A program made the position numbers and the translations under genes. Below are positions 7,328 through 40,604 of a stretch of DNA of 64,000 nucleotides, piece after piece. Below the pieces are notes generated by a model. The model was not told where the DNA came from and did no database searches. It saw only the letters and a list, made by a program, of their open reading frames with translations. The DNA comes from an uncultured Gammaproteobacteria bacterium. Its GTDB lineage: Bacteria; Patescibacteriota; Patescibacteriia; UBA9570; XYC2-FULL-38-9. How positions within the stretch are numbered: the first letter of the stretch is position 1; every line of letters begins with the position of its first letter. The stretch covers positions 148,467-212,466 of the forward strand of contig CAYFNF010000003.1 of assembly GCA_964344485.1 (NCBI GenBank), in the 5' to 3' direction.

Positions 7328-8551
7328 TTATTTCATTCTGAACTTCTTCCATGGGCTCCACTTGCTCCACCCAGCATCATTGCCGCATCGCACTCTGAAA
7401 CGATAGTACTGTTTACTCTTCACGAATTTCTTTGACTTTTTCAGAAATTTTGAATTAGTAGTAAGTCCTTTAAACTTTTTCACAGATGTAAATTTCCCGT
7501 TTGCTTTCTTTTTTTGTAACACTGCTTGATAGGTATCGGCATTTGCTTTCGCTTTCCACCACAACTTTGCTGACTTCTTCTTTTTCTTTTTCACTTTCAG
7601 ATGCTTCTTTTTCTTGATCTTGCTTGGTGCAGTGAGTTCATTAATTGTAAAATTTGCTAATGCATAATCTTCTGCTGAATCTGCTGCGCCATCAGTGGTC
7701 ATAGCAACACTATGCGCTCCGGCAATCCCAGCAACAGCATCACTGATCAATAAATCATACGCATCTTCATTACTTTTAGCTACGTCGGTAAGGACCTCAC
7801 AACTGAGTACAGAATTCTGACTGAGGTCATACGTTAAAATCTCATCTAAAGTGCCTTTAGAATTGTCTATAGTTGCATCAGTTAGATCCCACCCTGATTC
7901 ACTAGGCGATTTATTCTCTGCAACAAACACAATGCTTAGCTCTTCTCCGCTAGATAATCCACGGCTAAGCGTAAAATAGAGTTCTAGATCCAGTGTAGAG
8001 CCGGCGGTTGCCTCAGTTGGAGAAACTGATAACGAACCTACGGCATTTCCAAGGCCTTGGATGGACACAGTATCATCAGTCATGGTTGCATTCGCACTTT
8101 CACTCAGAGGCTGCGTTGTAACTCCAAAGCGAATTGACGTTGCCTCATCAGGATTCACCGCATCTGCTAGGGTGACGGTATACTTGTCTGCGGGGAGTTT
8201 TGCGGATAACGTTAATACAGTGCCCCTGCCATCAAGCACTGGTGAAAAAATAAAATTGGAGTTGCCAATAGATCCCTCTGATGAAGGAACCACATTTTGT
8301 AAATTTACATACTCCGGACCGTCGTCTTCTGTAGAGAAAATTGAGATAGTTGAACCGCTGGGTAGATCTACGTTAGTAGTGACGGCGATAGTATACGTCT
8401 CGGTTTCCCCAGCAATAGAAGCTGTTGGTGCAGCGGATACTTCTGATATATTTGCATCTTCCGTTCCTTGCATGCTAAATGCTTGCGCAGATGATGGCGC
8501 GTACACCAGGACTGCTGCGATAGCGAGTGTAAGCAAGATTGTTTTTTTCAT
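7328..8551 (-). CDS. secreted protein with Sec signal peptide, Ser/Thr-rich beta-rich body and Lys-rich C-terminal tail with FN3-like end
   Basis: MKKTILLTLAIAAVLVYAPSSAQA signal; C-terminal KKKKHLKVKKKKKK...YYRFRVRCGNDAGWSKWSP. Confidence 0.5.
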   Translation of the reverse strand: MKKTILLTLAIAAVLVYAPSSAQAFSMQGTEDANISEVSAAPTASIAGETETYTIAVTTNVDLPSGSTISIFSTEDDGPEYVNLQNVVPSSEGSIGNSNFIFSPVLDGRGTVLTLSAKLPADKYTVTLADAVNPDEATSIRFGVTTQPLSESANATMTDDTVSIQGLGNAVGSLSVSPTEATAGSTLDLELYFTLSRGLSSGEELSIVFVAENKSPSESGWDLTDATIDNSKGTLDEILTYDLSQNSVLSCEVLTDVAKSNEDAYDLLISDAVAGIAGAHSVAMTTDGAADSAEDYALANFTINELTAPSKIKKKKHLKVKKKKKKSAKLWWKAKANADTYQAVLQKKKANGKFTSVKKFKGLTTNSKFLKKSKKFVKSKQYYRFRVRCGNDAGWSKWSPWKKFRMK

Positions 8552-9925: not shown

Positions 9926-11320
<1,395 letters not shown>

Positions 11321-11323
11321 ACG

Positions 11324-13114
11324 TTATCCTAACTTTCGTAAAGATTCCGTGAGTACACGAAATTCTTCTGAAAGCTGCTCGATCGTAGCATTATCATTAC
11401 TTTGTTCAGCTGTTGCAAGATCCTGTTCGATCTTCTTCAGCTGTCGTTGTATGCGAAATCGCTCTAAGCTTTCTAATAGAGTGAGCAGTTCTTGTTGTAT
11501 TTCTCTTGTTTCACGCTCACTATAGAGCTCTTCTCCGATGAGTTGAAGTTGCTGCCATTTGGATGACAATTGTGATGATTCAAACTCAACTGCATCTGGA
11601 GAAAAAGTACCTGCTTGATTATAATGGGATTCTATTTTTTTGTAAAGGTCTTGGAGTTCAGGGTCATGAATCGTATCTGACCGGACTTTCTCAGCAATCG
11701 CTGTAAATTCATCAGGTTTTACAGTAATTAGGGCAAGTAATCGCTCGACAGTCATATATTCCCGGTTGGGTTTTACTGTTTTTTGTGGTGTTTCTGTTGC
11801 ATCGCCCTTTGAGCCTCGCGCTTGGCTTTTTTGTTGTTTCTTGTTCATACTGCCTATCTTCTCTTGTAGTACGTCTGGGGTTACATCCAGAACCTCAGCG
11901 AGTTTTTTTACATAATGTGTTTGCTCAATTCTATCAGGGAACAGCGCAAGCATGGGCAGAAGCTCTTGTGCTGCCTTTTTCTTGTGATGCACATTGGTGA
12001 GATCAAGTGGCTCTAGAACAGAATCAAATGCATACTCCATGAACGGTTTTGCGTTTACAGCTCGATCGCGGAACTCTTGCGGGTCTTTCTTGATTAGATC
12101 GTCTGGATCTTGGCCTGGCGGAAGAATAAGGACTTTGATATTCATTCCTTGCTGGATCGCGAGCTGCATTCCTCGCCATGCAGCAGAGAGTCCTGCGGTG
12201 TCAGCGTCGAACGCTAAAATCACATTCGCAGAGTAGCGCTTGAGTAAACGGACCTGCTCTTCAGTGAGCGCGGTCCCGGATGCAGAGACCACGTTGCGGA
12301 ATTTCGCTTGATACGCAGTGATCACATCGGTGTAGCCTTCTACAATAACGGTCGCGTCCATCTTCTGAATATACTTCTTTGCCAAATGCAATCCATACAG
12401 TACTGCGCTCTTGTTATAAACCGGGGTCTGCGGAGAATTAATATACTTTGCTTCTTTCTCTTCTGGATTTAACGTGCGTCCGCCGAATCCAATGATGTTT
12501 CCATGTGCATTGTGAATAGGAAATAGTAACCGGCCACGAAATCGGTCGTAATACCCGCCGGTTTTCTCTGACGGCACAATCAGTCCGCTGCGTTCAATCT
12601 CCTTCTCTTTATAACCGTTCTTTTTTAAGTGATTCATCAACGCGTCCCATGAGTCCAAGCTGTAGCCGATCTGAAACAACTCAACCGTCTCTTTTTGAAT
12701 TCCCCGGTCAGTAATATACCTTCGAGCGTTCTCTGCTTCTTGTGCGTTTTGTAGCTGTGCTTGAAAGAAAGAATTTGCTTCTTTGAGGCAGTCCAGGAGA
12801 CGTGTCTTTTCATTATGTTCTCTTGGATTTGTTGGTCGTAACTCCACATTTGCTTTCTGTGCAAGAATACGCAATGCTTCTGCGAATTCTATAGATTCAA
12901 TCTCTTGGACGAACGTAAAGAGGTCGCCACCCTTGCCACATCCAAAACAGTGGAACATCTGCTTGGGTTCAGAGACCATAAAACTCGGTGTTTTCTCATT
13001 ATGGAATGGGCACCGTGCTTTGTGATTTGCGCCTGCTTTTTTTAGTGAAACGTACTCTTGGACTACGTCCACTATGTTCAAGCGTTCTTTGATCTCCTCG
13101 ACTGGTGTAGGCAT
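11324..13114 (-). CDS. dnaG: DNA primase DnaG
   Basis: CHC2 zinc finger CPFHNEKTPSFMV..FHCFGCG, RNA polymerase domain, TOPRIM VIVEGYTDV; dnaG-rpoD synteny. Confidence 0.9.
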   Translation of the reverse strand: MPTPVEEIKERLNIVDVVQEYVSLKKAGANHKARCPFHNEKTPSFMVSEPKQMFHCFGCGKGGDLFTFVQEIESIEFAEALRILAQKANVELRPTNPREHNEKTRLLDCLKEANSFFQAQLQNAQEAENARRYITDRGIQKETVELFQIGYSLDSWDALMNHLKKNGYKEKEIERSGLIVPSEKTGGYYDRFRGRLLFPIHNAHGNIIGFGGRTLNPEEKEAKYINSPQTPVYNKSAVLYGLHLAKKYIQKMDATVIVEGYTDVITAYQAKFRNVVSASGTALTEEQVRLLKRYSANVILAFDADTAGLSAAWRGMQLAIQQGMNIKVLILPPGQDPDDLIKKDPQEFRDRAVNAKPFMEYAFDSVLEPLDLTNVHHKKKAAQELLPMLALFPDRIEQTHYVKKLAEVLDVTPDVLQEKIGSMNKKQQKSQARGSKGDATETPQKTVKPNREYMTVERLLALITVKPDEFTAIAEKVRSDTIHDPELQDLYKKIESHYNQAGTFSPDAVEFESSQLSSKWQQLQLIGEELYSERETREIQQELLTLLESLERFRIQRQLKKIEQDLATAEQSNDNATIEQLSEEFRVLTESLRKLG

Positions 13115-13896: not shown

Positions 13897-14469
13897 TTAG
13901 AATCCTAATTCATCAGCGATTTCTTGCATGGCAGCAATCGCGAGTGTGAAGAACTCGCTGCGCTCTAGTCCTGTTTTCTCTATATCGTTTATTAAATCTC
14001 GATTCACCTTAGCTGCAAAAGACTTATCTTTGAATTTCTTCGTAATGGACTTCGCTTTTACTCCTTCCAACTTCTTATCTGGACGCATTAAGGTGTACGC
14101 AACGATAAGACCAGTCAAGTTCTCAGCTGCTGATAGGCAATAATCAAGCTTGGATTCGCGCGCTACTTTAGTGTATTCCTCATTATGAGAGAGAATCGCT
14201 TGCTTCATCTCATCCGGAATCGCAAGTCCAGCGTCAGTCAATATTTGAATAGTCGTCGGCCCGTGCGCATCAGCATTGTTCTCGCCAGTTTGTTCAAAAT
14301 CTAGATCATGCAGCAAGCCAGTCACACCCCAGAACTCTTCATCCTCTTCAAAGTGCTTTGCGAGCGCGCGCATAATGACCTCGGTCTCACGTGAATGCTT
14401 GAGCATGAAATCTTCTTTCAAGTGCTCTGTAAGAAGGTCCTGTGCTTGTTCGATCGTTGGATAATTCAT
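13897..14469 (-). CDS. HD-domain phosphohydrolase
   Basis: H...HD motif (KHSRETE...LLHDLDF); start moved to MNYPT (14469) because the longer ORF overlaps the adjacent tRNA-Ser gene. Confidence 0.6.
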   Translation of the reverse strand: MNYPTIEQAQDLLTEHLKEDFMLKHSRETEVIMRALAKHFEEDEEFWGVTGLLHDLDFEQTGENNADAHGPTTIQILTDAGLAIPDEMKQAILSHNEEYTKVARESKLDYCLSAAENLTGLIVAYTLMRPDKKLEGVKAKSITKKFKDKSFAAKVNRDLINDIEKTGLERSEFFTLAIAAMQEIADELGF

Positions 14470-14488
14470 AGTTATTTTGCTAATGATG

Positions 14489-14573
14489 CGGTGGGAATGG
14501 GATTTGAACCCATGGTACATTTCTGCACACACGCACTCCAAGCGTGCGCCTTAAACCACTCGGCCATCCCACC
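14489..14573 (-). tRNA. tRNA-Ser (anticodon GGA), type II with long variable arm
   Basis: Reverse complement: acceptor GGTGGGA/TCCCACC, D-arm GCCGAGTGGTTTAAGGC, anticodon stem CACGC/GCGTG loop TTGGAGT, long variable arm, T-loop TTCAAAT. Confidence 0.8.
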
Positions 14574-18214: not shown

Positions 18215-21200
18215 TTATGTTGTTATCCTACCATATCCCATTACTGTTGGAAGTAGTCTCATTGGGCTAATATCTCGATATCGTGTCTTGCCTGGTTCCC
18301 CGGTTGGCTCTTCCATGCGAGCAAGATACGCCCCGGTTGCTAGAGACTTCATAAATTTCTCGAACCCTTCATGGATTGCGCGTCCTCCTTCAGAGATAAT
18401 CATCAATACCTCTTTATACTTCTCACCGGTTTCCAAGGTGCCTGACACCACCGCAGCAACACGTTCTAACTGTTCTGCTTCAACATCAGGCACAAACGTG
18501 CGAATTCCCTCTTGCACTAACGCCGGGTTCTGGAATTGTGCGAGCATGCCTAAGAATATCTTCTTAATGCTATCAATCTCTGTTTGCGCGATCTCGCCCG
18601 CGCTTCCAAGGTCCAGCTCTCCGAGTTCACCATCTGGCGTGACCACCCAATTTCCTGGGTGCGGATCTGCTTGAAATCGTCCTTTCACGAATATTTGATA
18701 CATGAGCGCGTCAAACGCTTGTACGTGGATATCTTCTAATCGACCGACGAGACCTTCATACGCAGTCATTTCATCTGGCTGCAAGTCGTATTTCGCTTGA
18801 AAATCTGCCAAGGTGCGTCGCCCCATTGCTACGTCAGTTAATTCTCGTAACGACAACCCTCGAATCTCCTCTTCTAATATATGTTCTTCACTGTGATCTA
18901 GGATCTCTGCAATGCGCACCGGGAACAGACGCGCCATAGCTGCTTGTGGGTAGTCTTCCATAGCCGCAGCCACTGCTTCATGATTCCGTACTTCTTCTTG
19001 GAAGTTTGCCTCATCACGTAACCAACGACCGATACGATCTTCCAAACCATCAGGTACAGTAAAATCTGCTTCGCGAAGATTTCCCATAATCCTATTCAGT
19101 ACCCGAAGGTCTTCCCCGAGATGCTTTGCAATAGATGGTCTTCGCACTTTTGCAATCACACGCTGTCCGTCTTCTCTAGTCGCACGATAGACTTGTTTAA
19201 TTGACGCAGCAGAGATTCGTCTGTCCATAGAAACCAGCCGATGTGGATGGCCTTCTTCAAACTGTCCCACTGCTCCCATCATGTGCATGCTGGCAGTACG
19301 GTGGAACGTTTTTGCGTTCTGTTGGAGCTTGCGCAATTCCTCGGCGATGTCATCAGGGAGCAACGGGGTACCGTCCGCGTTCTTTTCTTCAGCTAAGACT
19401 TGGCCTGCTTTAATACCGACTGGCCCGACCGCTTCTAGTAATCCACGCAGGCGTTCTCCAATTGTAGAGTCTCCTTGTCCGCGTAGTACTTCCATCATCT
19501 CGATGTAGACTTTTGCACGTCGGAATGGACCGTACTCTTGTAATGCAGTTGTAAAGATCACTCGTACTGCTTCTCTTCCTCTCTCTCCCAGTGCTTCTGC
19601 TGCTTCAGGTGGAAAGACTCGCTCAAACGATCGATCAATAAATTCTTGGAATATCGCTTCGTCTTCTTCTTCGCGCGGGTCCATGACACCGTTCTCTCCA
19701 AAGAGCAAACGGATATAGGTCTCTTCGCGTTCCTGTGGAGTGGCTGCAAAGAGTAGGTCTGGCATGTCTTCCACTGAGCACTCATTATGTCCACCGAATG
19801 CACGTAATATGCGCGGAGGTTGATCAGTCTCTCCGATAGTCCATAATACAAATTCTTTTCTGTCTTCACGGTTTAAATATGCTAAAACCGAATTGATTTT
19901 CTCTACTGTAGATTGTTGTGATAGTTCTGCGTCCTCGGTGGTGCGTCGTTGTACATCAAAAAGACGGCGTGTGATTTCCCGTGCTTGTGGAGGAGTGCGG
20001 ACTACGCCAGTATCTCCAAGTTGCAATAGCGCTTCACCCCGTACATGTGATGCGTGTGGGTAGAGCTCACTGATACGATCCAATTCGCTCGCAAAGGTCT
20101 CTTCCCCTGTTGCAAGGTGTTCTCGGAATAATGAATTCGCTCTTCGTGACCAAAGCTGCTGATGCGCTTGATCTGCAAACAGTGGAATGGTTCGTTGATA
20201 AAACGTATATAGTTCATGTGCAACATCTGGCTGAATCTCGTTCCCTTCTGGTGCAACAACTTCGTGTCCGTTCGTAGTAAGGCCACGCTCTTGTAGTAAT
20301 GCTGTTTCTATGGCGCCTAATAATTCATCACGATAATTCGTCACCTCTGGAATGAGTTCTTGAACGCGGTCCACTCTTCCAACTGCGGGGATCGAGGGAT
20401 CCGCTGGTAATTGAGTGTAGTCTATATAGAACTCTAGTGCATTGTACCGCTCTGAGTATTTGCGGTCCCCTCGGAATATCGTAGTAAAGCTCGGCGCAGA
20501 AGGATCATACGCTGCAGCATCAGATTCGATATTACGGGGGATCAACTCACTAGTGCTTTTTGAATAATGCGACTCTCGATCTATCGGGTGATAACGTTGA
20601 ACGAATCCACTCTCCACCACCTCATCTGGAAGCGCTCCTGGATGATACACTCGAAAGATGTCGCGAAGCTGCGTATCACGTGTGGAAACTGGAACAAACT
20701 GCGTTATAGCTGCAACACTCTCATCTTCTGATCGCTCATCTGGTTCCACATGCCATCTGCCCCATTGCCATATAATGCCGTGCGCTTCTAGTGCTCGTTG
20801 CATAATTGAATATGTAACCCCGCGATCAATACGATCCACGCCCCATTCTCCACTTCTATCTTCGGCTTGTTTGCATTTCCCTTCTATCTCTACGCAATAC
20901 CGTGCGAGCTCTTCTAGCTCTGGCTGAGTGAGTGCATCAAATGCTGCTTGTAAATCTGCAGCGTGTGGTGAAACGCTGGTATCAAAATTAATCGCGCCGT
21001 CTCGCAGCACTCTCTTCAGCGGCGCAACGATGGAATCGCCTGGATTAAGCACCATATACAACCGAACATACTCAATAGACAGCGAAATGCTATAGATAGC
21101 AGCTGCTTTATCGCGCTCTGTATAATCCTCAACTTCACGTCTGTCGATACAGTCGCTATCCCACTTCGGTACCACATCAAGTGCTGCCTCTAAAAAGTCT

Positions 21201-23764
21201 AACTGCTCTTGCTCTGACATACGTGCTCGTCGCTCTGCATCATTCCATGCTCCTCGAATGTGCGTCCATATTACTGAGGGATCTTCTCCTTCTAGAAAGC
21301 GGAGCATCTCTGCAGGTGGAACAGAATCAGAACATGATGATATAATCGCATCCAGAAACTCTTGTCGAGCTCGTTTAGATTCATACGTCACTGCAGGGTA
21401 TAGATGAAGTATCGGTGCGGCTCGCTCAACTAAGTCATCGTATGATGCTATCCCGACTTCATGCAACAATCCAACTAACTCAGCTTGATGCAGAGAAGCA
21501 ACTTCAGCATGGGAAACCTGTAAAATACTATGCATCTGTTCTAGGCGTTCTTGAGGGGTGAGTGTTTGAAACCCTTCTCTCTCAGCTCGTGCTTGGATCG
21601 CACGAGTTACCACGTGCTCCCATAATACATAGATAGCATCAGCACCGCGGAGAGGTGCGTCAAATCCTGTTTCTTCTAAAAATAATTCGTTCGCTGAGGG
21701 TCTCGCTTCTATAGCTGGTTGTGGAAAGTGGCGTAACCACTGTTCACACTCCTGTTGTGAAAGTGTTGCAACAAAACCTTCAAGTTCCGCGGGTTGATAT
21801 CCTCTTGCAGATAACTTCATGGCGAGTTCAGCAACCAACTGTCCAAGTGTAGCGGCGTGCTCTGCTGAAAGTAATGCGCGACCCTCTGCGCTAGTAGTAT
21901 ACCGCTGTGCAAACCGCTGAGCGAGTTCCGGAAGTATACGATCAACAGTAGGAGAAGGAATGGTCCGTGGTTCTAAGGCTGGCATGGATTCTCCTGTGGC
22001 AATTGCTTGTCCTAACGCGGCAAGCGCTTCATTGTCATCACTATCAAACGCGTTTCGCGCTTCCATCATGAGAACTTGCCTGATGACTGCTACTCTTCCC
22101 TCTGGAGTTGAGACATCATCTGCTCTACGTAACTCTTCAGGTAGATAATGCTCTCTTGTGAGGTCGACTGTTAAGACACCTTGAGTGAGTTTGTCCAGCT
22201 GCATCTTCCAATTGCGTGCTTGGTCATGAAAAAATGGGGTACTGCTTTCACTGCAGAGAGTCATAAGCTCTTCAGGCTCTGCTGCACGCACTTGCTCTTT
22301 TACTGCATCATTATATTCATATCCGTCTTCTTTCGGCCCGTCGATATCTGCGTTAGAAATAAGCGTGTCTAGCGTGTCAGCGGACACACCATCAACTACT
22401 GCTTCTAGCTGTGCACGAAGATGCTGTACTTTACGTTGTAGTTCAATACGTGCTGCAAGCTTTGCTGCTTTTTCATGATCGTCCGGGTCTTCATCAGCAG
22501 CTGCTTGCGCTTGTGGAATTTGCTCACTGAGAAACCGTAGTGTTTCATCATATGCTTTGATTACTTCCGCGCGTTGCCGCTGCAGTCGCGTGTGCAGCGA
22601 TCGTTCAAATTTCTCTTCGTCATACGGCCCTTCCTCTACTTGTGCCCCAAAATCAAATTCTCTATCCATATATCGAGAGAGTTTATCCGGTGCTACCGAA
22701 GCCCTTGCCAAATACTCTGCTCTTCCTTCAGAGTAATGGTAACCGTAATATGCGGCATGTAGTGCATTGAGCACTTCTGCAAAATTGTGAAGCACAATCC
22801 TCTGTGCATAGTGTTTTCGCATTCGCTCCTGCTCTGCTGCGTGATGAAATAACGCGTGACGATCTAATACAAAAGCAGCAACACCAACTTCAACCGCATC
22901 ATGAAAACTCTCAGCTTGAGCGATCATGTCTTCAATATGGTCTAAACCCTCAGCACGGTACAATCGCGTGCCAGGTCGGCCGGGTGGTTCATCGATAAAT
23001 GCACGTTGCACTTCTGCTGGAACAACGGTCGGCTCTTTTTCAATATTCGGTAGCCAGGTGTCTGGGCTCTCCACTAACTCCACGAGCTCTCTATATCTAT
23101 CAGCGGATCGAGGGTGGGATGTTCCAATAGGCAGATCATTCGATAGGCTTAATAGAAACTGGATAGCTGCTAATCCCTCACGTGGATTATATCCAGCTTG
23201 TGCAAGTGCGATCAGTCCACCACGGTCAGCGTCGTATTCCGCATTCAAGCGGCGCTGCTTCTCATCGTGATCTGGATAGTCTTCATGAACGACGCCTTCT
23301 TCAGTATGCTGATCAATATGTGTACTTTCATGCGCTGCCACCATAGCGATCATGTCTTCGGTCATTGGTCGACCGTGTCGTTCGCACCAGCGCCCAAGTT
23401 CTCGCAGCAATCCCATGTATGTGTAGACGTGCGCGTGCCCGCTTACGACAAACGCATTAATTCCGGGTGAATCAATTGCAACCACATCAGTGGCGGGAAT
23501 CGATAACTGCCGCTCAATTCTTGCTTGAATGCGTGCCAGCATCTCTTTTCGCGGATCATCATCATCTAGAATTCCAAAACGCTGCTCCAATTGATAGAGC
23601 ATTCGTCGTAAATACGCTTCTGTTTGGTCTTGCCTACTTTGTGCTTCTGCAAGCCCAATTATTTCTACTCTTGGCGGTTCATCATGATCAACTTCAGGAA
23701 CTTCAGCAATTGAACGTGCTGGTCGTGGTAGTCTGGATTCTGATGCTGCAGCGTGTGAGTTCAT
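18215..23764 (-). CDS. giant multidomain protein (1849 aa): N-terminal M48-family zinc metalloprotease domain + C-terminal ABC1/UbiB-type atypical kinase-like domain
   Basis: M48 signatures INAFVVSGHAHVY, HESTH(x)..., EYDADRGGLIALAQAGYNP. ABC1 signatures VGPVGIKAGQVLAEEKNADGTPLLPDDIAEELRKLQQNAKTF, ISAASIKQVYRATREDGQRVIAKVRRPSI, FQADPHPGNWVV. Confidence 0.75.
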   Translation of the reverse strand: MNSHAAASESRLPRPARSIAEVPEVDHDEPPRVEIIGLAEAQSRQDQTEAYLRRMLYQLEQRFGILDDDDPRKEMLARIQARIERQLSIPATDVVAIDSPGINAFVVSGHAHVYTYMGLLRELGRWCERHGRPMTEDMIAMVAAHESTHIDQHTEEGVVHEDYPDHDEKQRRLNAEYDADRGGLIALAQAGYNPREGLAAIQFLLSLSNDLPIGTSHPRSADRYRELVELVESPDTWLPNIEKEPTVVPAEVQRAFIDEPPGRPGTRLYRAEGLDHIEDMIAQAESFHDAVEVGVAAFVLDRHALFHHAAEQERMRKHYAQRIVLHNFAEVLNALHAAYYGYHYSEGRAEYLARASVAPDKLSRYMDREFDFGAQVEEGPYDEEKFERSLHTRLQRQRAEVIKAYDETLRFLSEQIPQAQAAADEDPDDHEKAAKLAARIELQRKVQHLRAQLEAVVDGVSADTLDTLISNADIDGPKEDGYEYNDAVKEQVRAAEPEELMTLCSESSTPFFHDQARNWKMQLDKLTQGVLTVDLTREHYLPEELRRADDVSTPEGRVAVIRQVLMMEARNAFDSDDNEALAALGQAIATGESMPALEPRTIPSPTVDRILPELAQRFAQRYTTSAEGRALLSAEHAATLGQLVAELAMKLSARGYQPAELEGFVATLSQQECEQWLRHFPQPAIEARPSANELFLEETGFDAPLRGADAIYVLWEHVVTRAIQARAEREGFQTLTPQERLEQMHSILQVSHAEVASLHQAELVGLLHEVGIASYDDLVERAAPILHLYPAVTYESKRARQEFLDAIISSCSDSVPPAEMLRFLEGEDPSVIWTHIRGAWNDAERRARMSEQEQLDFLEAALDVVPKWDSDCIDRREVEDYTERDKAAAIYSISLSIEYVRLYMVLNPGDSIVAPLKRVLRDGAINFDTSVSPHAADLQAAFDALTQPELEELARYCVEIEGKCKQAEDRSGEWGVDRIDRGVTYSIMQRALEAHGIIWQWGRWHVEPDERSEDESVAAITQFVPVSTRDTQLRDIFRVYHPGALPDEVVESGFVQRYHPIDRESHYSKSTSELIPRNIESDAAAYDPSAPSFTTIFRGDRKYSERYNALEFYIDYTQLPADPSIPAVGRVDRVQELIPEVTNYRDELLGAIETALLQERGLTTNGHEVVAPEGNEIQPDVAHELYTFYQRTIPLFADQAHQQLWSRRANSLFREHLATGEETFASELDRISELYPHASHVRGEALLQLGDTGVVRTPPQAREITRRLFDVQRRTTEDAELSQQSTVEKINSVLAYLNREDRKEFVLWTIGETDQPPRILRAFGGHNECSVEDMPDLLFAATPQEREETYIRLLFGENGVMDPREEEDEAIFQEFIDRSFERVFPPEAAEALGERGREAVRVIFTTALQEYGPFRRAKVYIEMMEVLRGQGDSTIGERLRGLLEAVGPVGIKAGQVLAEEKNADGTPLLPDDIAEELRKLQQNAKTFHRTASMHMMGAVGQFEEGHPHRLVSMDRRISAASIKQVYRATREDGQRVIAKVRRPSIAKHLGEDLRVLNRIMGNLREADFTVPDGLEDRIGRWLRDEANFQEEVRNHEAVAAAMEDYPQAAMARLFPVRIAEILDHSEEHILEEEIRGLSLRELTDVAMGRRTLADFQAKYDLQPDEMTAYEGLVGRLEDIHVQAFDALMYQIFVKGRFQADPHPGNWVVTPDGELGELDLGSAGEIAQTEIDSIKKIFLGMLAQFQNPALVQEGIRTFVPDVEAEQLERVAAVVSGTLETGEKYKEVLMIISEGGRAIHEGFEKFMKSLATGAYLARMEEPTGEPGKTRYRDISPMRLLPTVMGYGRITT

Positions 23765-23832
23765 GTATGATTATAACAAATAAAAATATCACAAAATAGT
23801 GAAAAAGTCAATGGAATCCTCCAATACAATCA

Positions 23833-29929: not shown

Positions 29930-32374
29930 TTAGCTCTTATTCTTCAACTCTTTTTCATGCTGCGCAATCATCACCGAAGTCTTTACAACTGTGTCAGGAT
30001 TCAATGAAATAGAATCAATTCCTTTGTCGACTAAGAACTCTGCGATCTCTGGAAAGTCTGATGGTGCTTGTCCACAGATCCCGATCTTCTTCCCTTCTTC
30101 ATGAGCATAGCGAATCACTCGTTCAAGGATAATCGTAACCGCAAGATTCCGTTCGTCATACAGATGAGCAACTAATCCAGAGTCACGGTCCAACCCAAGC
30201 AGCAGTTGTGTCAGATCATTGGTCCCGATAGAGTATCCATCAAATATCTTTAAGAACTCTTTTGCGAGAATCACATTCGCTGGTATCTCACACATCATGT
30301 AGATCTCTAATCCATTCTCTCCTTGTTTCAGTCCGTTCTCTGCCATGATCTGTACTACCTTCTTCCCTTCCTCTGGTGTACGACAGAACGGGATCATAGC
30401 CTTCATATTCGTGAGCCCCATCTCATTGCGTACTCGTTTAAACGCCTCGCACTCTAACGCAAACGCTTCTTTATACTTCTCGGAGTAGTACCGTGACGCA
30501 CCACGCCATCCGATCATGGGGTTTTCCTCATGTGGCTCAAATTGCTTTCCTCCAATTAAGTTCGCGTACTCATTGGACTTGAAATCAGACATGCGCACGA
30601 TCACATCATGCGGATAAAACGCTGCACAGATCTTTCCCACTCCTTCTGCGAGCTTCTCAACAAAGTATTCGGTCTTGTCTTTATACCCAGCGGTTAATTC
30701 CTCTATCTGTTCCTTTACTTCACTGTCTTCAAGCTCATTAAAACGCAGCAATGCTAATGGATGTATCTTGATATAGTCCAAAATGATCAGTTCTTCACGT
30801 GCGAGTCCTACTCCCTGATTCGGAATTTGCGCAAAGTCGAATACGCGCGACGGGTCCGCTACAATCATCATCATCTGTGTTTCGGGCAGTTCCATACCAG
30901 AGATGTCAGTTTCATCTATACGAAACGGTAATTCGCCTTCATAGATAAACCCTCTCTCACCTTCTGCACACGAGACCGTCACGGTATCACCAGAATGCAA
31001 CGTGGTCGTAGCTTCTCCGGTGCCGACAATAGCCGGAATGCCGAGCTCACGAGAGACAATAGCAGCATGGGATGTTCTGCCTCCGGAGTTAGTTACAATC
31101 CCAGAGGCGATCTTCATAATCGGCTCCCAATCAGGGTCTGTTATTTCAGTCACAAGTATCTGTCCTTTTTGAAATCGGTGGATCTCAGACGCGTTTTTAA
31201 TGACATTTACTTCACCAGTACCGATCTTTGCGCCAACTGCGACTCCTTCCAACAACACCTTGCCCTTCTCTTCTAATACATACTCTCTGATCACATTCTT
31301 GTCTGTTTGTGACTGCACGGTCTCTGGACGCGCTTGCACAATGTATAACTCTCCGGTCCCACCATCTTTGGCCCATTCAATATCCATGGCTTTTTCATAG
31401 TGCTCCTCAATCTGCATGGCCCAGTGTGCGAGTGTAAGAATCTCCTCATTTGTCAGAACGAACTGTTGTTGCTCTTCTTCTGGAACCTGCACTTCTTTGA
31501 CCGCGCCTCCTAATGAGACCTCTGCTTCAGCTGCATAGACCATCTTATACTGCTTGGACCCAAGTTTTTTCTCAATAATCGGAGAGTTGGTAAATGCGAT
31601 CTTGCCCTGCTTCTCTACAGCGCCCTGCTTGAGCGCGGGCTTGAATACAATGAACTCATCTGGGTCAACCTTTCCTTGAACCACCATCTCGCCTAGCCCC
31701 CACGTAGCGTTGATCACCACCGCGTTCTCAAATCCAGACTCGGGGTCAATAGAGAACATCACTCCAGAGCATGCAGTGTCTGATCGCACCATCTTCTGGA
31801 TACCAACCGAAAGTGCAATCGTAAAGTGATCAAAGTTCTTGTCTTCACGGTATGAGATCGCGCGGTTAGTAAACAGTGACGCAATACAGCGCCTAGTGGC
31901 TTCTAGTACTTCGTGTGCTCCTTGTACATGTAAAAAAGTCTCTTGCTGTCCAGCGAATGACGCGTCCGGCAAGTCCTCAGCAGTTGCAGAGGACCGAACC
32001 GCGACATCCACATACTCTTCTCCATCTTTTTTGCTCAGTTCAGCATACGCTTGCTCCACTGCCTGCTCTAACTCATTCGGAAAATCTGCCTTCAAAATCG
32101 TCTCGCGTACTTTATGCCCTCGTTCCGTCAGGTTCTTCATGTCTGTAGTGTCTAAATCCGAAAGAATCTCCTTAATAGTATCTCGAATACCGGCTTGATC
32201 AATAAAGAAATTATACGCGTGCGCGGTCAGAGCAAATCCATTTGGAACTCGAATCCCTTTTTCAGCCAAGTTTTGATACATTTCGCCGAGCGAAGCGTTC
32301 TTACCGCCGACATACGGCACGTCCTCGATGCTTAAGTCGTTGAACCAAAGTATATATTCTTGGTCTTTGCTCAT
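29930..32374 (-). CDS. ppsA: phosphoenolpyruvate synthase (pyruvate, water dikinase)
   Basis: Collinear with E. coli PpsA: VGGKNASLGEM, RSSATAEDLPDASFAGQ, catalytic His region TNSGGRTSHAAIVSRELGIPA, PEP-utilising C-terminal domain; start chosen at MSKDQEY by homology. Confidence 0.85.
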   Translation of the reverse strand: MSKDQEYILWFNDLSIEDVPYVGGKNASLGEMYQNLAEKGIRVPNGFALTAHAYNFFIDQAGIRDTIKEILSDLDTTDMKNLTERGHKVRETILKADFPNELEQAVEQAYAELSKKDGEEYVDVAVRSSATAEDLPDASFAGQQETFLHVQGAHEVLEATRRCIASLFTNRAISYREDKNFDHFTIALSVGIQKMVRSDTACSGVMFSIDPESGFENAVVINATWGLGEMVVQGKVDPDEFIVFKPALKQGAVEKQGKIAFTNSPIIEKKLGSKQYKMVYAAEAEVSLGGAVKEVQVPEEEQQQFVLTNEEILTLAHWAMQIEEHYEKAMDIEWAKDGGTGELYIVQARPETVQSQTDKNVIREYVLEEKGKVLLEGVAVGAKIGTGEVNVIKNASEIHRFQKGQILVTEITDPDWEPIMKIASGIVTNSGGRTSHAAIVSRELGIPAIVGTGEATTTLHSGDTVTVSCAEGERGFIYEGELPFRIDETDISGMELPETQMMMIVADPSRVFDFAQIPNQGVGLAREELIILDYIKIHPLALLRFNELEDSEVKEQIEELTAGYKDKTEYFVEKLAEGVGKICAAFYPHDVIVRMSDFKSNEYANLIGGKQFEPHEENPMIGWRGASRYYSEKYKEAFALECEAFKRVRNEMGLTNMKAMIPFCRTPEEGKKVVQIMAENGLKQGENGLEIYMMCEIPANVILAKEFLKIFDGYSIGTNDLTQLLLGLDRDSGLVAHLYDERNLAVTIILERVIRYAHEEGKKIGICGQAPSDFPEIAEFLVDKGIDSISLNPDTVVKTSVMIAQHEKELKNKS

Positions 32375-32447
32375 AGGGGTGTGTTTATATGAAAAATGTG
32401 GCGGTTGCCACATACTAGAGTATCATATTTCGAACGATCTATAAACT

Positions 32448-33866
32448 TTAAATTTCGACTGCTTCTGCCAGTGCCAGGTCCCGTTTAATGAATCCGCTGA
32501 CAGTAACAATATAATCGCCTTTTTTTGCCATCTTTGCTTTCACGATCTCTCGGCGGGCTTTTTGGATAAAGTCTTTTCGGTCTTTAGGTCTGTTGATTTT
32601 GATTCCTTTACACCCCCAGATAAGTGCGAGCTGTCGAAGCACTTGATCGTCATCCGTGAACACCACAATCTCTGCTTTTTGCGGCCGCAGTTGTGAAATC
32701 ATGGTAGCGGTATGTCCGGTTCTACTGAGAATAGCGATTGCTTTTGCGCCGATAGCTTCAGCTAGATGCACAGTAGAGTGCGCGACTCCAATGGCTTTCG
32801 TTTTCTTGCGTCTGTCAAAGATATCATCAGAAAGATCATCAAATGCAGACTGTTCGATCTTGCGTGCAATACTGGACATGGTGCGTACTGCTTGTACCGG
32901 GAACTTCCCAGTCGCGGATTCTGCGGAGAGCATGATGGCATCGGTATGGTCGATAATTGCGTTTGCCACATCAGCTGCTTCAGCACGGGTCGGTCGAGGG
33001 TTTCTGGTCATAGACTCTAGCATCTGCGTTGCTACAATTACTGGCTTTCCTTCGGTAAGTGCTTTTGCCACCATCTTTTTCTGCAGTAGTGGAATCTCTG
33101 CTGGACCGAGCTCTACACCTAAGTCACCGCGCGCTACCATAATACCGTCCACTGCTTTTAATATCTTATCATAGTTCTTCACTGCTTCCGCGCGTTCGAT
33201 TTTTGCAATGATCTTAATTGGCCGTGACTTTGGAATGAGCTTTCGCAGCTGCTTAATGTCTTTGTCGTCTTTGACAAAAGAGAGTGCAACGTAGTCCACT
33301 CCTTGCTTAATGCCAAACTTGAGATCTTTCTTGTCTTTTGCAGTAATCACATCTGCCTCAATAGTAACACCTGGAGCGTTCACTCCCTTATGGGAGTACA
33401 CAGTCTCGCCTTGTACCACGCGGCAGAAGATCTTTTTATCCGTAATCTTCTGAATCTTCAAATCAATAATACCGTCTTGGATATAGATGTGTCCGCCTGG
33501 CTTTACAAACTGATAGAGCTCTTCGTATTGGATTGGTATTGGAATACGACCTAGCTCCTCGTGCTGCTCAAACTCTTGTTGAGAGAGAAGGATAACGTAG
33601 TCTCCATTGCGGATTTCAATACCTTCGGGCGGTACATCTCCAGTGCGAATACGTGGCCCTTGCAGGTCTTGAAGTAGTGCAATCGGTTCTTTCTCTTCTT
33701 TTGCTGCAGTACGTATGGTTTTTATTAGTTTGGCGTGGTCTTCATAGCTCCCATGAGAGAAATTCAAGCGCGCGACGTTCATTCCAGCCGAGATCATTTT
33801 GCGCAACTGTGTTTTCGAATCAGAGGATGGACCGATGGTACAGACAATTTTTGTATTCTTCTTCAT
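32448..33866 (-). CDS. pyk: pyruvate kinase
   Basis: KIVCTIGP, MVARGDLG, typical barrel + C-terminal regulatory domain; 472 aa. Confidence 0.9.
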   Translation of the reverse strand: MKKNTKIVCTIGPSSDSKTQLRKMISAGMNVARLNFSHGSYEDHAKLIKTIRTAAKEEKEPIALLQDLQGPRIRTGDVPPEGIEIRNGDYVILLSQQEFEQHEELGRIPIPIQYEELYQFVKPGGHIYIQDGIIDLKIQKITDKKIFCRVVQGETVYSHKGVNAPGVTIEADVITAKDKKDLKFGIKQGVDYVALSFVKDDKDIKQLRKLIPKSRPIKIIAKIERAEAVKNYDKILKAVDGIMVARGDLGVELGPAEIPLLQKKMVAKALTEGKPVIVATQMLESMTRNPRPTRAEAADVANAIIDHTDAIMLSAESATGKFPVQAVRTMSSIARKIEQSAFDDLSDDIFDRRKKTKAIGVAHSTVHLAEAIGAKAIAILSRTGHTATMISQLRPQKAEIVVFTDDDQVLRQLALIWGCKGIKINRPKDRKDFIQKARREIVKAKMAKKGDYIVTVSGFIKRDLALAEAVEI

Positions 33867-37601: not shown

Positions 37602-40544
37602 TTACCAATCACACGTGGACAACGTTGCGGTTGCCTGTAAATTACCCGACGAATCAATATAGATACAGTGTAATTGACTGTCTTGCCCGTATATATACAA
37701 CCCTCTGCTCACATGAGTAGCATCATGCCCGAATCCTGATCCAGTTGCTCGTCTCGTCAACTCTCCGCCAATATGCATGGTCCACATATACGTAGCATCA
37801 AATACTATGCCCCCTGGAATCTGGCCAGGAATCATACCAATGCCTTTAGCGGTTTCTTTCGAAATATCAAATATTGCCGTACCGTACCCTCCGGCTCCGC
37901 CACCACCTGCAAAAATAATCCAGATGTTAGCTCCATCAAACGCGACATCTACTGGCTTAGTTAGTCCTGTTGATGCGAGACTAAAGGTTCGGAAGTTGTT
38001 GGTCTTAGTATGCAGTTGAATTAATTCATTATTTGCTGCACTAGCAATCCAGAGATACTGTCCGTCATACGCCATCCGTTCTAACGACCCAGCTTCAAAC
38101 CCTGATATGACTGTATCCACTGCCATGGTGTCAATATTAATCTTAATCACCTGACCATTCGGTTTATCAATAGCCCAAATAAAACCATTAGCAAAGATCA
38201 TATCGATAATACGACCAAACCCACCTGCGACCACTTGAAAATTACTACCACCCCAATTCACATACCCAATCTGGCCCGCAACATTCCCTGCCCATATGCG
38301 AGCGTATTGATCATGTGTGGAACTCACTGGCTGCCCAAGTCCAGAAATAGTCGTCGTTGTTGCCGTATCATCTCGTAGTTGCACTTTTTTAATCTGATTG
38401 CTTGAACACAATATATAGATAGTTTCATCACGCAGCACCATGGTACGACAAGTGATCTCAGTAAAGTCATAATCCAATACTTTTCTCTTATCCACTGCGT
38501 TGTATCGATAGAGCCAGTCACCGGTAAGCACCCATACATCAGATCCATCAAACAACATGTCATCTACATTATTAGAAGTTCCTAGGCTCGTATTTCCTGC
38601 ATCCACATATGCATTCTGGTAGATACCGTCCCCGGAGTTTTCATTTGGATAGAACTGCCCGCCGATGAACTCTGCCTCACCTATAACCATGCCGGTATTT
38701 GCATGTAGTGCTAAGCCGAATTCATCCACTTTAATAATGACTCCTGATCCTTTATTCGACATATCCACCTGTATACCAGTTGCTGTCTCACCGCCTGCTT
38801 CGACACGTATACCGTATTTATCCGTTGTTGATGTTGTTGTATGAGTGTTTTGCGCGAGAAGTGCTGTAGAATTAGACCCATCAGACGTAAACCACCCACC
38901 GTATCCAGCAGTAGCAAACGTGGATGTGCCTACGACTCCGGCCCCTCCGCTTCCTGTCGAGGATCCAAATACCGCGTGTTCATTCACACTGATAGCATGA
39001 ACTGCTGTGTTATCAGTGGAATAGCCGAACACACCATGCTCGGTGTCACCGGTACCGATTACTGCTGATCCGTCAGCCACAATTGCCGTGACTGTTGCTG
39101 GGTCGATGTTATGAACGGTTGAAACTATACCGTAGCCTGGGCTTGAAGTGCTCACTGCTGTATTCTTCACTGTCAACACAATATCATTCTGCAACTGATC
39201 TTCCATATAGACCTTTGCAGTAAAATTTCCTGAGTAGGTTGGCCCACCAAGATACGCACAATTCGATGTCTGGTTACACATCACACCTCCATAATACGTC
39301 GTAGCATCCGCGGAGTTTGCGTATAACCCGTAATTTAACTCACTATGTGCAACAACTCCCATGTCTGAATTACCAGCACCATATACTCCTGCCCCACCTG
39401 CGGTGGATTCAGCATACCCAACCACACCGTAGGTTGAATCACTTAGTCCGAGCACTCCTTCACTTCCAGAGGTCGGGAACGACGCAGCTGGTACAGGTAC
39501 TGAACCCGAAACTGACCCTGAATCTGAACGTAATCCAATACCTCCAGCGGTATTACTGACCAGCACTGAAGCGTCTGGACTAGTTACGGCACTAGAAAAA
39601 GTTCCTGCAGGTCCTGTTCCTGTACTTGATGCTACTCCAGTTGCACCGGTTGTTCCTTTGACATTTACTCCTGTATGCGCTCCATCAACAAACACCTCTA
39701 ATGCATCAGCGACAGTAATAGGCGCAGCGCCGTCACCAATAGCCGCGGGGCCTTGAATAAATGCTGCATGGCTGGGATTTCCTAAGTCTGTATAATGGCC
39801 AGATGTCGTATTTTCTGCGTGCACTGCTACACCAGTATCAGAAGTAGTATACACTCCATCCGCGCCGCTCGTACCAACCGCGTATATACCTTTATAAGAG
39901 CCGTCGACATACACGGATAGACCGTCTGCAGTAGTAATCGGTGTGCTCCCTGAACCTATAGCTCCAGGGCCGCTTAAGTACGCAGCATGCGCAGGTGTAC
40001 TGAGATCGATAGAATATGATGATGTGGTGTTATTTGCAAAGATTGCTGGCGCTGAACCAGAAGCAGTAATTACCGACATGCCTGGACCGGCTCCGTCTTG
40101 TTGAATCTGAACTCCATTCACCCATGAATTCGTCACCACAGCAATGGCATTAGTTCCAGAGTCTTGGTGGTCGATATTTAACGACTCTCCTGAGGTGGTT
40201 ATAATTGCTATCTCCCCGTTGCCTGTACCAATAGATGGATCAATAAATAGATCTACTGCGGTTGCAGCTTGCTGTACAGCCAAGGTATTTTCCAACACCG
40301 TAGTTCCAACCACTGTTAATGAATCACCGAGTGTGAGTGGGCCTGCTTTGGTTTGCGCTGCAGTAGAGAGGTTAATTGGTGCTGAAACATTGCAAGATGC
40401 GTGTGTTGGCCCGTCTACATCAGGGTCACATGTAGGCTGATTCCAGGCTGCACGCGCATAAGGCGCAACAAGAAACATACAGAGAGAAATAACAAAAAAA
40501 CCAGTGAAATACTGCGAAAATCGTGTTATAAACTCTGTTTTCAT
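37602..40544 (-). CDS. large secreted/surface protein (about 980 aa): signal peptide, Gly/Thr/Ala-rich beta-rich N-terminal half, C-terminal probable beta-propeller
   Basis: Signal-like MKTEFITRFSQYFTGFFVISLCMFLVAPYARA; start chosen at 40544 because a TTGACG-18-TATAAT promoter for the divergent gene lies at 40547-40576. Confidence 0.55.
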   Translation of the reverse strand: MKTEFITRFSQYFTGFFVISLCMFLVAPYARAAWNQPTCDPDVDGPTHASCNVSAPINLSTAAQTKAGPLTLGDSLTVVGTTVLENTLAVQQAATAVDLFIDPSIGTGNGEIAIITTSGESLNIDHQDSGTNAIAVVTNSWVNGVQIQQDGAGPGMSVITASGSAPAIFANNTTSSYSIDLSTPAHAAYLSGPGAIGSGSTPITTADGLSVYVDGSYKGIYAVGTSGADGVYTTSDTGVAVHAENTTSGHYTDLGNPSHAAFIQGPAAIGDGAAPITVADALEVFVDGAHTGVNVKGTTGATGVASSTGTGPAGTFSSAVTSPDASVLVSNTAGGIGLRSDSGSVSGSVPVPAASFPTSGSEGVLGLSDSTYGVVGYAESTAGGAGVYGAGNSDMGVVAHSELNYGLYANSADATTYYGGVMCNQTSNCAYLGGPTYSGNFTAKVYMEDQLQNDIVLTVKNTAVSTSSPGYGIVSTVHNIDPATVTAIVADGSAVIGTGDTEHGVFGYSTDNTAVHAISVNEHAVFGSSTGSGGAGVVGTSTFATAGYGGWFTSDGSNSTALLAQNTHTTTSTTDKYGIRVEAGGETATGIQVDMSNKGSGVIIKVDEFGLALHANTGMVIGEAEFIGGQFYPNENSGDGIYQNAYVDAGNTSLGTSNNVDDMLFDGSDVWVLTGDWLYRYNAVDKRKVLDYDFTEITCRTMVLRDETIYILCSSNQIKKVQLRDDTATTTTISGLGQPVSSTHDQYARIWAGNVAGQIGYVNWGGSNFQVVAGGFGRIIDMIFANGFIWAIDKPNGQVIKINIDTMAVDTVISGFEAGSLERMAYDGQYLWIASAANNELIQLHTKTNNFRTFSLASTGLTKPVDVAFDGANIWIIFAGGGGAGGYGTAIFDISKETAKGIGMIPGQIPGGIVFDATYMWTMHIGGELTRRATGSGFGHDATHVSRGLYIYGQDSQLHCIYIDSSGNLQATATLSTCDW

Positions 40545-40546
40545 TT

Positions 40547-40576
40547 CGTTGACGGTTAGGCCATTTTTAGTATATA
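40547..40576 (+). promoter_or_regulatory. sigma-70-like promoter for 40605 gene (TTGACG, 18 bp, TATAAT)
   Basis: Consensus-like hexamers 28 nt upstream of ATG in divergent intergenic region. Confidence 0.4.
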
Positions 40577-40604
40577 ATATCAACACATTCATCGCAATAG
40601 CACT

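Follow-up and report, generated by a model that had tools for sequence, protein, structure and literature searches.

The 64,000-nucleotide stretch of contig CAYFNF010000003.1 analyzed here (hereafter the window) encodes, in a single open reading frame (ORF), an 1849-residue protein in which an M48 zinc-metallopeptidase domain is joined through a long helical region to an ABC1/UbiB atypical kinase-like domain. This architecture recurs among large proteins of bacterial and archaeal lineages in which the catalytic residues of both domains have been retained. Our preferred reading, to which we give a probability of roughly 40%, is that the protein is a nucleotide-gated, plug-inhibited M48 protease controlled by a UbiB-type ATPase via an alpha-solenoid.

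A Single Gene Encodes Both Catalytic Domains

The ORF opens with an ATG and is uninterrupted as far as its stop codon (18215–18217). At a GC content of ~48%, a run of 1849 open codons could not have arisen by chance. Both catalytic domains were detected with Pfam: Peptidase_M48 (PF01435) scored 30.6 bits against a cutoff of 20.3, with its best stretch at aa 74–152 and a second stretch, and ABC1 (PF03109) scored 93.5 bits against a cutoff of 22.9 (aa 1516–1741). These results uphold the original prediction, which had been made from the sequence alone and proposed that M48 and ABC1 domains share one 1849-aa polypeptide. The motifs that it quoted for the two domains all lie in the translation where it had placed them, and the catalytic residues that it singled out (the Glu of HESTH, Lys1539, and the D1700 loop) are present and are conserved in relatives. 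It had also named an internal frameshift separating two genes as a way in which the fusion might prove false; none was found, and homologs P0002–P0009 align with the fusion protein over 96–98% of its length (29–41% identity), by which a frameshift in the window gene was discounted.

The absence of obvious transmembrane helices, also part of that prediction, was borne out. The highest mean Kyte-Doolittle hydrophobicity over 19 residues was 1.29, indicating that the fusion protein has no transmembrane helix, and a search of the 1849-aa protein for a signal peptide and for a transmembrane segment returned neither. The protein is strongly acidic (net charge -123). Collectively, these observations predict that the product of this gene is a soluble, cytoplasmic, very acidic multi-domain enzyme that derives from a genuine single gene.

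An artifactual origin was also considered, in which an error in sequencing or assembly fused two adjacent genes or the contig is chimeric. In its favor, the gene of one relative (L056) was predicted as a pair of overlapping ORFs that encode 1236 aa and 572 aa (11650–11760; overlap of 13 nt). However, this split results from a single-base frameshift inside a conserved pre-kinase motif (between SQLERFNV and MG..KKDF) and away from any domain boundary; a natural split form was therefore rejected, and the locus represents a pseudogene or an assembly error. Moreover, 74 other independent assemblies from different projects have the uninterrupted architecture and conservation is continuous along the full length, such that an artifact is effectively refuted already and its probability is negligible.

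Conservation and Probable Common Origin of the M48–ABC1 Cassette

A search for homologs identified about ten proteins of 1731–2327 aa (27–41% identity), each with both Pfam domains. A profile of aa 240–1400 was then searched against 1.84 billion representative proteins and yielded 98 relatives. The whole middle region was matched by only ~16 of these proteins (1731–1922 aa), and the aa 1100–1400 part was matched by ~80 further proteins of 1750–6707 aa. Local hidden Markov models (HMMs; m48, mid, prek, and abc1) were built from our own alignment and run on 102 sequences, 74 of which share the ordered layout of M48, a spacer of ~1000–1250 aa, a conserved module here termed pre-kinase, and ABC1. 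The search for orthologous fusions that the original prediction had suggested was thus positive, with named carriers in Peregrinibacteria, Omnitrophota, and Woesearchaeota. Spacing is also maintained: the end of the pre-kinase module and the start of ABC1 are separated by a median of 13 aa, and HExxH and the end of the pre-kinase module by 981–1786 aa (median 1317). Both M48 and ABC1 were found by Pfam in every subgroup examined.

In the window protein, the local HMMs placed boundaries at aa 60–240 (m48), 241–1100 (mid), 1102–1400 (prek), and 1401–1837 (abc1). The conservation profile likewise comprised four zones, with high conservation at aa ~60–240, weak conservation at ~241–1100, strong conservation at ~1101–1400, and the ABC1 zone at ~1401–1849 (Table 1). 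Among 9–11 members at 29–41% identity, the columns that are invariant or nearly so contain the residues that are catalytic or diagnostic for the two domains, together with the pre-kinase motifs. In an alignment of 15 giant members with a mean identity of 20%, the invariant positions were HExxH, E..AD, HP....R, K.GQ, AS, K, D.H..N, and D.G, together with the pre-kinase motifs. This invariance of catalytic residues across the family suggests that both active sites are under purifying selection.

Pairwise divergences of the M48 and ABC1 domains in the 74 proteins were positively correlated (Pearson 0.79; Mantel test, 0/999 permutations; cluster agreement by adjusted Rand index 0.71), as were those of the pre-kinase module and ABC1 (0.84). 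This covariation is most simply read as the outcome of one ancient fusion event followed by joint inheritance, and the divergence data thus indicate that the cassette has probably been kept together since.

Table 1. Features of the fusion gene and its immediate surroundings in the window.
Feature	Residues (aa)	Position in window	Strand	Basis
Whole fusion gene (M48, helical scaffold, pre-kinase, ABC1)	1849 aa	18215..23764	(-)	ORF list and full-length homologs
M48 zinc-metallopeptidase domain, short 'minimal' version	60–240	23045..23587	(-)	Pfam PF01435; profile matches to 3C37, BepA, and HtpX
HExxH (two Zn ligands and catalytic Glu)	H145-E-S-T-H149	23318..23332	(-)	Translation; invariant in both family alignments
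Third Zn ligand, Glu	E176-Y-D-A-D180	23225..23239	(-)	Alignment to 3C37 and BepA (E201)
HPx4R 'active-site plug' (BepA H246/P247/R252)	H217-P-R-S-A-D-R223	23096..23116	(-)	Translation; family alignment
All-alpha helical scaffold, low conservation	241–1100	20465..23044	(-)	AF2 model; Foldseek; conservation profile
Conserved pre-kinase module (~300 aa)	1101–1400	19565..20464	(-)	Family HMM; structure prediction
Pre-kinase motif IPEvTnYRD	1138–1146
Pre-kinase motif QLWSRRA	1203–1209
Pre-kinase motif LYPhASxxR(D/G)EAL	1234–1246
Pre-kinase motif QRRT	1272–1275
Pre-kinase motif KeFvLW	1302–1308
Pre-kinase motif ERE	1345–1347
Pre-kinase motif GxNGV	1356–1360
ABC1/UbiB atypical kinase-like domain with KxGQ N-terminal extension	1401–1849	18218..19564	(-)	
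GPVGIKAGQ, UbiB-specific KxGQ motif (K1452, G1454, Q1455)	1447–1455	19400..19426	(-)	Translation; family conservation
AASIKQVY, Ala-rich nucleotide loop in place of Gly-rich loop	1519–1526	19187..19210	(-)	Translation; alignment
VIAKVRRP, ATP-binding Lys1539	1536–1543	19136..19159	(-)	Aligned with VAVKIQYP of 5YJZ
QADPHPGN, catalytic loop (D1700, H1702, N1705)	1698–1705	18650..18673	(-)	Aligned with GDAHPGN of 5YJZ
ELDLGS, metal-binding DxG (DFG equivalent), D1718	1716–1721	18602..18619	(-)	Aligned with IDFG of 5YJZ
Upstream intergenic gap (68 nt), promoter-like TTGACT-17-TATTTT and TATAAT-like box adjoining the ATG		23765..23832	(-)	Weak; consensus match
Upstream neighbor (right-handed beta-helix/NosD repeats, TSP3 repeats)	1789 aa	23833–29202	(-)	
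Downstream neighbor, acidic	1179 aa	14671–18210	(-)	Begins 4 nt beyond the fusion stop codon

The M48 Protease Domain

A family profile was required to match the M48 domain to proteins of solved structure: when the N-terminus was run with phmmer as a single sequence against the Protein Data Bank (PDB), only a chance match was obtained, and the family profile matched 3C37 (E-value 1.7e-12), BepA (4e-8), and HtpX. Relatives score 30–50 bits with the Pfam model. HExxH and ExxAD are both kept in 76/76 M48 matches, and E176 is invariant in the family alignment, where it aligns with the E..AD of 3C37 and BepA. The distance from HExxH to this Glu ligand is 27 aa in the window protein compared to 61 aa in BepA (family range 13–48 aa). 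An INAF motif (aa 102–105) and an AGYNP motif (aa 190–194) are also present.

A pattern comprising H-E-x-x-H-x(30,140)-H-P-x(4)-R was established experimentally for BepA and the M48 family as a whole, and in BepA the plug His supplies the zinc with a fourth ligand and so obstructs the active site, such that the plug must shift for proteolysis to proceed; a helical TPR domain packs against the protease (PMC7950410). The window protein satisfies this pattern, with 67 residues between H149 and H217, and the plug residues H217, P218, and R223 are invariant in the family alignment. In score, HExxH, Glu ligand, and plug, the N-terminal domain agrees with the M48 family in each respect examined, and it is predicted to be a member of that family.

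The Helical Scaffold and the Pre-kinase Module

The original prediction described an unknown middle of about 1000 aa. That description needs to be divided, since the region comprises an all-alpha scaffold of ~860 aa that varies between lineages and a strongly conserved pre-kinase module of ~300 aa. No match to the pre-kinase module was found in Pfam or among PDB sequences. A confident AlphaFold (AF2) model of aa 240–1400 (mfd2b93daed94) is almost purely helical, with a predicted local distance difference test (pLDDT) score of 79 and a predicted template modeling (TM) score (pTM) of 0.59. When this model was compared to the PDB with Foldseek, only generic alpha-solenoids were recovered, at TM-scores of 0.1–0.2; these included karyopherins, HEAT and PCI scaffolds, and the N-terminal arms of PIKK kinases. 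Matches of this kind suggest a helical scaffold for which no specific relative has been solved. The scaffold ('mid') HMM matched only ~25/102 sequences, all from a subfamily of ~1800 aa.

Another ~80 large proteins have the pre-kinase module, in every case immediately N-terminal of ABC1. The structure prediction that had been proposed for the C-terminus yielded the pre-kinase module and ABC1 as one rigid body (pTM 0.80, pLDDT 84.8). The window copy has the pre-kinase consensus (PE..D, W..RA, [LF][YF]P..S..RD, W, ER, and G.NG) apart from one position that is discussed below. Collectively, the alignments and searches suggest that the pre-kinase module is a previously undescribed conserved domain.

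The variability of the scaffold bears on an alternative in which the two activities are tethered but independent. Here, the solenoid would co-localize a protease and a UbiB-type ATPase on one target, e.g., a membrane- or lipid-associated complex, and the fusion would secure 1:1 stoichiometry and co-targeting with no gating, much as PGM48 and ABC1Ks are brought together on plastoglobules. In plants and cyanobacteria, M48 and ABC1K are indeed separate proteins that share a compartment, the spacer of ~1000 aa is poorly conserved in sequence, and hydrophobic segments at the N-terminus serve the giant relatives as anchors. However, the length of the spacer has been kept over huge divergence (981–1786 aa), where that of a mere tether would be expected to drift more, and retention of the autoinhibitory plug implies an activating input. 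We regard independent tethering as somewhat doubtful.

The ABC1/UbiB Domain

Structure prediction assigned a protein-kinase-like fold to the ABC1 domain, with COQ8A as the nearest relative, and structure-level checks agreed with both the M48 and the ABC1 assignments. K1539 is conserved at ≥90% in the family alignment, D1718 and G1720 are conserved, and DxHxGN was found in 84/94 ABC1 matches. The KxGQ motif, which has been described as invariant in the UbiB family (bioRxiv 10.1101/149823), is followed by LLP at aa 1468–1470. The C-terminal domain agrees with the ABC1/UbiB family in every respect examined. In UbiB proteins, the KxGQ extension shuts the cleft to protein substrates, and the activity that is conserved and measurable, ATP hydrolysis, increases in the presence of lipids and phenols (bioRxiv 10.1101/149823).

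These features might also be explained if the protein were an ordinary UbiB ortholog, i.e., a helper of quinone biosynthesis with extra N-terminal sequence. The UbiB model TIGR01982 is the top NCBIfam match (112.9 bits, aa 1415–1609), and a relative is labeled by JGI as an 'unusual protein kinase regulating ubiquinone biosynthesis.' However, this score falls well short of the 487.55 bits that the equivalog cutoff demands (NF003404 scores 72.1 bits against a cutoff of 667), and the C-terminal transmembrane helix is missing; by equivalog score and membrane anchor, the fusion protein would not be classed as UbiB proper. Neither ubi nor men genes were encountered, whether in the 64-kb window or at five related loci. 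To our knowledge, CPR (candidate phyla radiation) bacteria generally lack respiratory quinone synthesis, which also counts against a role as an ordinary UbiB, and we consider such a role highly improbable.

Distribution and Accessory Domains

Named carriers of the cassette comprise a Candidatus Peregrinibacteria metagenome-assembled genome (MAG), proteins of Candidatus Omnitrophota deposited as 'AarF/UbiB family protein' (4899 aa) and 'M48 family metalloprotease' (3725 aa), and a protein of a Candidatus Woesearchaeota (DPANN) archaeon deposited as 'FHA domain-containing protein' (3327 aa). The CPR, Omnitrophota, and DPANN carriers belong to ultra-small lineages that are regarded as host-dependent. 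Contigs were scanned with a single peptide pattern, and the taxonomic range of the family is therefore under-sampled.

The original prediction had called the fusion unprecedented. This holds for the literature, where the papers searched included none that treats PF03109 and PF01435 together and none that pairs UbiB with Peregrinibacteria or with an M48 fusion, and where two papers on the giant proteins of Omnitrophota do not mention M48 or ABC1. It does not hold for the databases, in which at least 74 representative clusters share the architecture. The M48–ABC1 architecture is thus undescribed in the literature found, yet recurrent, with some of its sequences deposited under one-sided names. 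A viral origin was rejected, as viral contigs hold generic stand-alone ABC1 domains only, and a defense system was rejected for want of any PADLOC match.

Hydrophobic segments were detected in 20/82 long members, mainly giants of 3000–6700 aa and in many cases at the extreme N-terminus; CPR forms of the cassette are soluble. In 13/15 giants surveyed, Pfam identified M48 and ABC1 only. Additional domains were identified in some of the large members. The Woesearchaeota protein (P0027) has a HopA1 effector-family domain and FHA within aa 23–124 and 330–391, and the 4899-aa Omnitrophota protein (P0046) has Metallophos (calcineurin-like, PPP-type phosphoesterase) and a weak receiver domain (aa 1338–1420 listed). 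A protein of 5759 aa (P0101) has Amidase_2 (peptidoglycan amidase), a Hanks Ser/Thr kinase, HD_4, and SAM methyltransferases. In a protein of 4600 aa (P0106), the pre-kinase module and ABC1 lie near the N-terminus (aa 661–1243) and two HExxH sequences (HEITH at 2217 and HELTH at 2640) occur much further along the chain; P0106 may represent a form of the cassette that is permuted or has no M48.

Such accessory domains raise the alternative of a phospho-signaling scaffold, in which ABC1 would be a real protein kinase acting on itself or on substrates and the protease would be an output or would be controlled by phosphorylation. FHA in P0027, Metallophos and the weak receiver in P0046, and the Hanks kinase and HD domain in P0101 would fit such a role, and AtABC1K6 has been reported to be a Mn-dependent protein kinase (PMC8956952). 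However, the cassette retains KxGQ and the Ala-rich loop, which in COQ8 accompany ATPase activity, as opposed to protein-kinase activity, and a closed substrate cleft, and the accessory signaling domains are absent from the CPR form as well as from the 13/15 giants noted above. This alternative appears unlikely.

Genomic Neighborhood

The window is chromosomal CPR/Patescibacteria DNA that encodes dnaG, rpoD, pyruvate kinase, pyruvate phosphate dikinase, clpC, and five tRNAs. The Patescibacteria host assumed in the original prediction is corroborated by ClpC, which is nearest to proteins of Candidatus Kerfeldbacteria (59% identity) and other Patescibacteria. Upstream of the fusion gene, a promoter scan gave fewer sites than shuffled sequences, and TTGACT-17-TATTTT is accordingly a consensus match only.

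The upstream neighbor (Table 1) has, in addition to its repeats, a domain that resembles the N-terminal (fibronectin-type) domain of purple acid phosphatases, as well as hydrophobic segments toward each end, and is predicted to be a typical giant CPR surface protein. The downstream 1179-aa protein has no Pfam domain and no homolog but itself among 5.8 billion proteins; it is unrelated to the fusion protein, including its middle region, and nothing in related loci matches it. We regard it as a true orphan, probably transcribed together with the fusion gene. Across five loci, no conserved gene neighbor was found, and the neighbors, which are of housekeeping type, differ everywhere. Given the orphan status of the 1179-aa neighbor and the different neighbors in every locus examined, a multi-gene system was rejected; the lack of a conserved neighbor fits a self-contained machine.

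The surroundings of the window gene also bear on the possibility of an exported effector, i.e., a protease/kinase toxin delivered to, or acting on, the host cell of episymbiotic lineages. Every named carrier comes from a host-dependent ultra-small lineage, the Woesearchaeota relative begins with a HopA1 effector-family domain, and the window gene is flanked by the 1789-aa beta-helix surface protein and the orphan 1179-aa gene. Against this, the protein lacks a signal peptide and transmembrane segment, housekeeping genes are its neighbors at other loci, PADLOC gave no match, and the N-terminal membrane anchors of the giants suggest retention in the producer cell. We therefore view an effector role as decidedly unlikely.

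Several further features of these loci were recorded. dnaG and rpoD lie within a few kb of the fusion gene in the window (9926–13114 (-)) and in locus L001 (6639–9826), with a different order, and many Chitinophagaceae loci (L006–L052) encode a stand-alone M48-like gene 1.5–3 kb from dnaG; the proximity of fusion or M48-like genes to dnaG may be a coincidence. At the P0003 locus (L055, 13865–15478), VKOR, a DsbA-like thioredoxin, and DoxX are encoded just downstream of the fusion gene and lgt, and the VKOR implies that this organism uses a quinone. Elsewhere in the window, the listed TTG start of an HD-domain ORF (13897–14541 (-)) overlaps tRNA-Ser(GGA) (14488–14573 (-)) by 54 nt, such that translation probably begins at a more downstream codon. 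The genes for pyruvate phosphate dikinase (827 aa) and pyruvate kinase (472 aa) lie side by side in one orientation (29930–33866 (-)). ORFs at 37602–40592 (-) (996 aa) and 7328–8551 (-) (407 aa) had no Pfam match.

A Gated Protease as the Preferred Reading

The BepA-type plug and the UbiB features have all been kept, in a fixed order and spacing and across deep divergence, and this combination is what leads us to propose a gated protease. In this proposal, the rigid unit formed by the pre-kinase module and ABC1 would bind and hydrolyze ATP like other UbiB proteins, rather than act as a protein kinase, and might respond to a lipid or small-molecule ligand. The resulting conformational change would travel along the solenoid, which may double as a surface on which substrate docks, and would couple the two active sites either by lifting the HPx4R plug off the zinc or by presenting substrate to the protease. 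The original prediction had suggested a protease regulated by ABC1, or proteolysis under the control of a lipid-binding module; this suggestion is reasonable and is the one that we prefer.

Four observations weigh against a gated protease of this kind. First, M48–ABC1 contact or allostery would extend beyond the structural models, which cover aa 240–1400 and the pre-kinase/ABC1 unit. Second, protein-kinase activity is possible, given AtABC1K6 (PMC8956952) and the FHA, phosphatase, receiver, and Hanks-kinase domains of some giants. Third, some relatives have the pre-kinase module and ABC1 with no detectable M48; these matches are mostly short or lack a Met start and, for the most part, look like fragments. 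Fourth, the window copy encodes Gly1243 (codon 20036–20038, (-)) where every other member examined has the Asp of LYPxASxxR(D)EAL. Across the family, Asp is conserved at ≥90% at the equivalent position, and all of the 15 giants keep the RD pair. Gly1243 differs from Asp by one nucleotide and could reflect real variation or an error in the MAG consensus.

Comparison to Known Systems

HExxH, the E..AD Glu ligand, and an HPx4R plug whose His binds zinc are features that the cassette shares with BepA (PDB 6AIT/6SAR) and the Geobacter protein 3C37, and, as in BepA, a non-membrane M48 domain is joined to an all-helical partner domain (TPR in BepA). Unlike BepA, the fusion protein is predicted to be cytoplasmic and lacks a signal peptide, and its helical partner spans ~1150 aa compared to ~200 aa for the TPR domain. 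It further differs from BepA and 3C37 in its C-terminal ABC1 domain and in its modest M48 Pfam score (30.6 bits). Relative to COQ8A/ADCK3 (4PED), Escherichia coli UbiB, and Mycobacterium tuberculosis Rv3197/MABP-1 (5YJZ), the fusion protein lacks a transmembrane helix and a quinone-pathway context, and its ABC1 domain is preceded by the 300-aa module and by 1100 residues that include the protease. Both catalytic domains are known; the pre-kinase module and the conserved architecture are new.

The closest functional parallel is found in plastoglobules and cyanoglobules, where PGM48 (sll1280), an M48 protease without a transmembrane helix, co-resides with several ABC1 kinases (ABC1K1/3/6/7) and is co-expressed with ABC1K7 and ABC1K3. 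In these photosynthetic organisms, PGM48 and the ABC1Ks are distinct chains that reside on a lipid droplet, whereas the cassette is one chain. By analogy, the cassette would be a 'Rosetta stone' form of this pairing, and the co-residence of PGM48 and ABC1Ks is a hint, independent of the cassette itself, of a functional M48–ABC1 link.

FtsH and Lon offer an analogy, drawn from general knowledge, in which a nucleotide-hydrolyzing module governs a protease within one chain, the same logic as that proposed here. FtsH is also a zinc HExxH protease. In the cassette, however, the putative ATPase is protein-kinase-like rather than AAA+ and the protease is M48 rather than M41 or S16. No AAA Pfam domain was matched in the fusion protein at E ≤ 1, and unlike FtsH and Lon, the cassette gives no sign of ring oligomers or unfolding activity. 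The Kae1-Bud32 fusion of Methanocaldococcus (PDB 3EN9) is likewise only analogous: Kae1 is an enzyme of t6A synthesis and not a protease, Bud32 is RIO-like and not UbiB, and there is no long scaffold. A broader claim would assign the cassette to an energy-dependent protease class of its own, with a UbiB-type kinase-fold ATPase and the pre-kinase module in place of the AAA+ ring and with gating of the plug-inhibited M48 protease via the alpha-solenoid, and would have UbiB/ABC1 proteins partner M48 proteases more generally; we consider it rather doubtful. If true, the pairing of UbiB/ABC1 with M48 may extend to ABC1K and PGM48 on plastoglobules and possibly also to ADCK/COQ8-type proteins and OMA1-type proteases in mitochondria.

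UbiB/ABC1 proteins, which are of ancient origin and linked to disease, occur in all domains of life, and M48 proteases are widespread. The target of UbiB/ABC1 ATPase activity is unclear (bioRxiv 10.1101/149823), and the trigger of M48 activation is poorly understood (PMC7950410). A fusion that is conserved across CPR, Omnitrophota, and DPANN is a strong hint from comparative genomics that M48 and UbiB cooperate. Since the CPR form is soluble and has no transmembrane helices, it should be tractable for biochemistry and cryo-electron microscopy, and the effect of a UbiB domain on its partner would be directly testable. For the ultra-small, host-dependent microbes that encode it, the cassette adds a recurring building block to giant proteins that are otherwise little understood.

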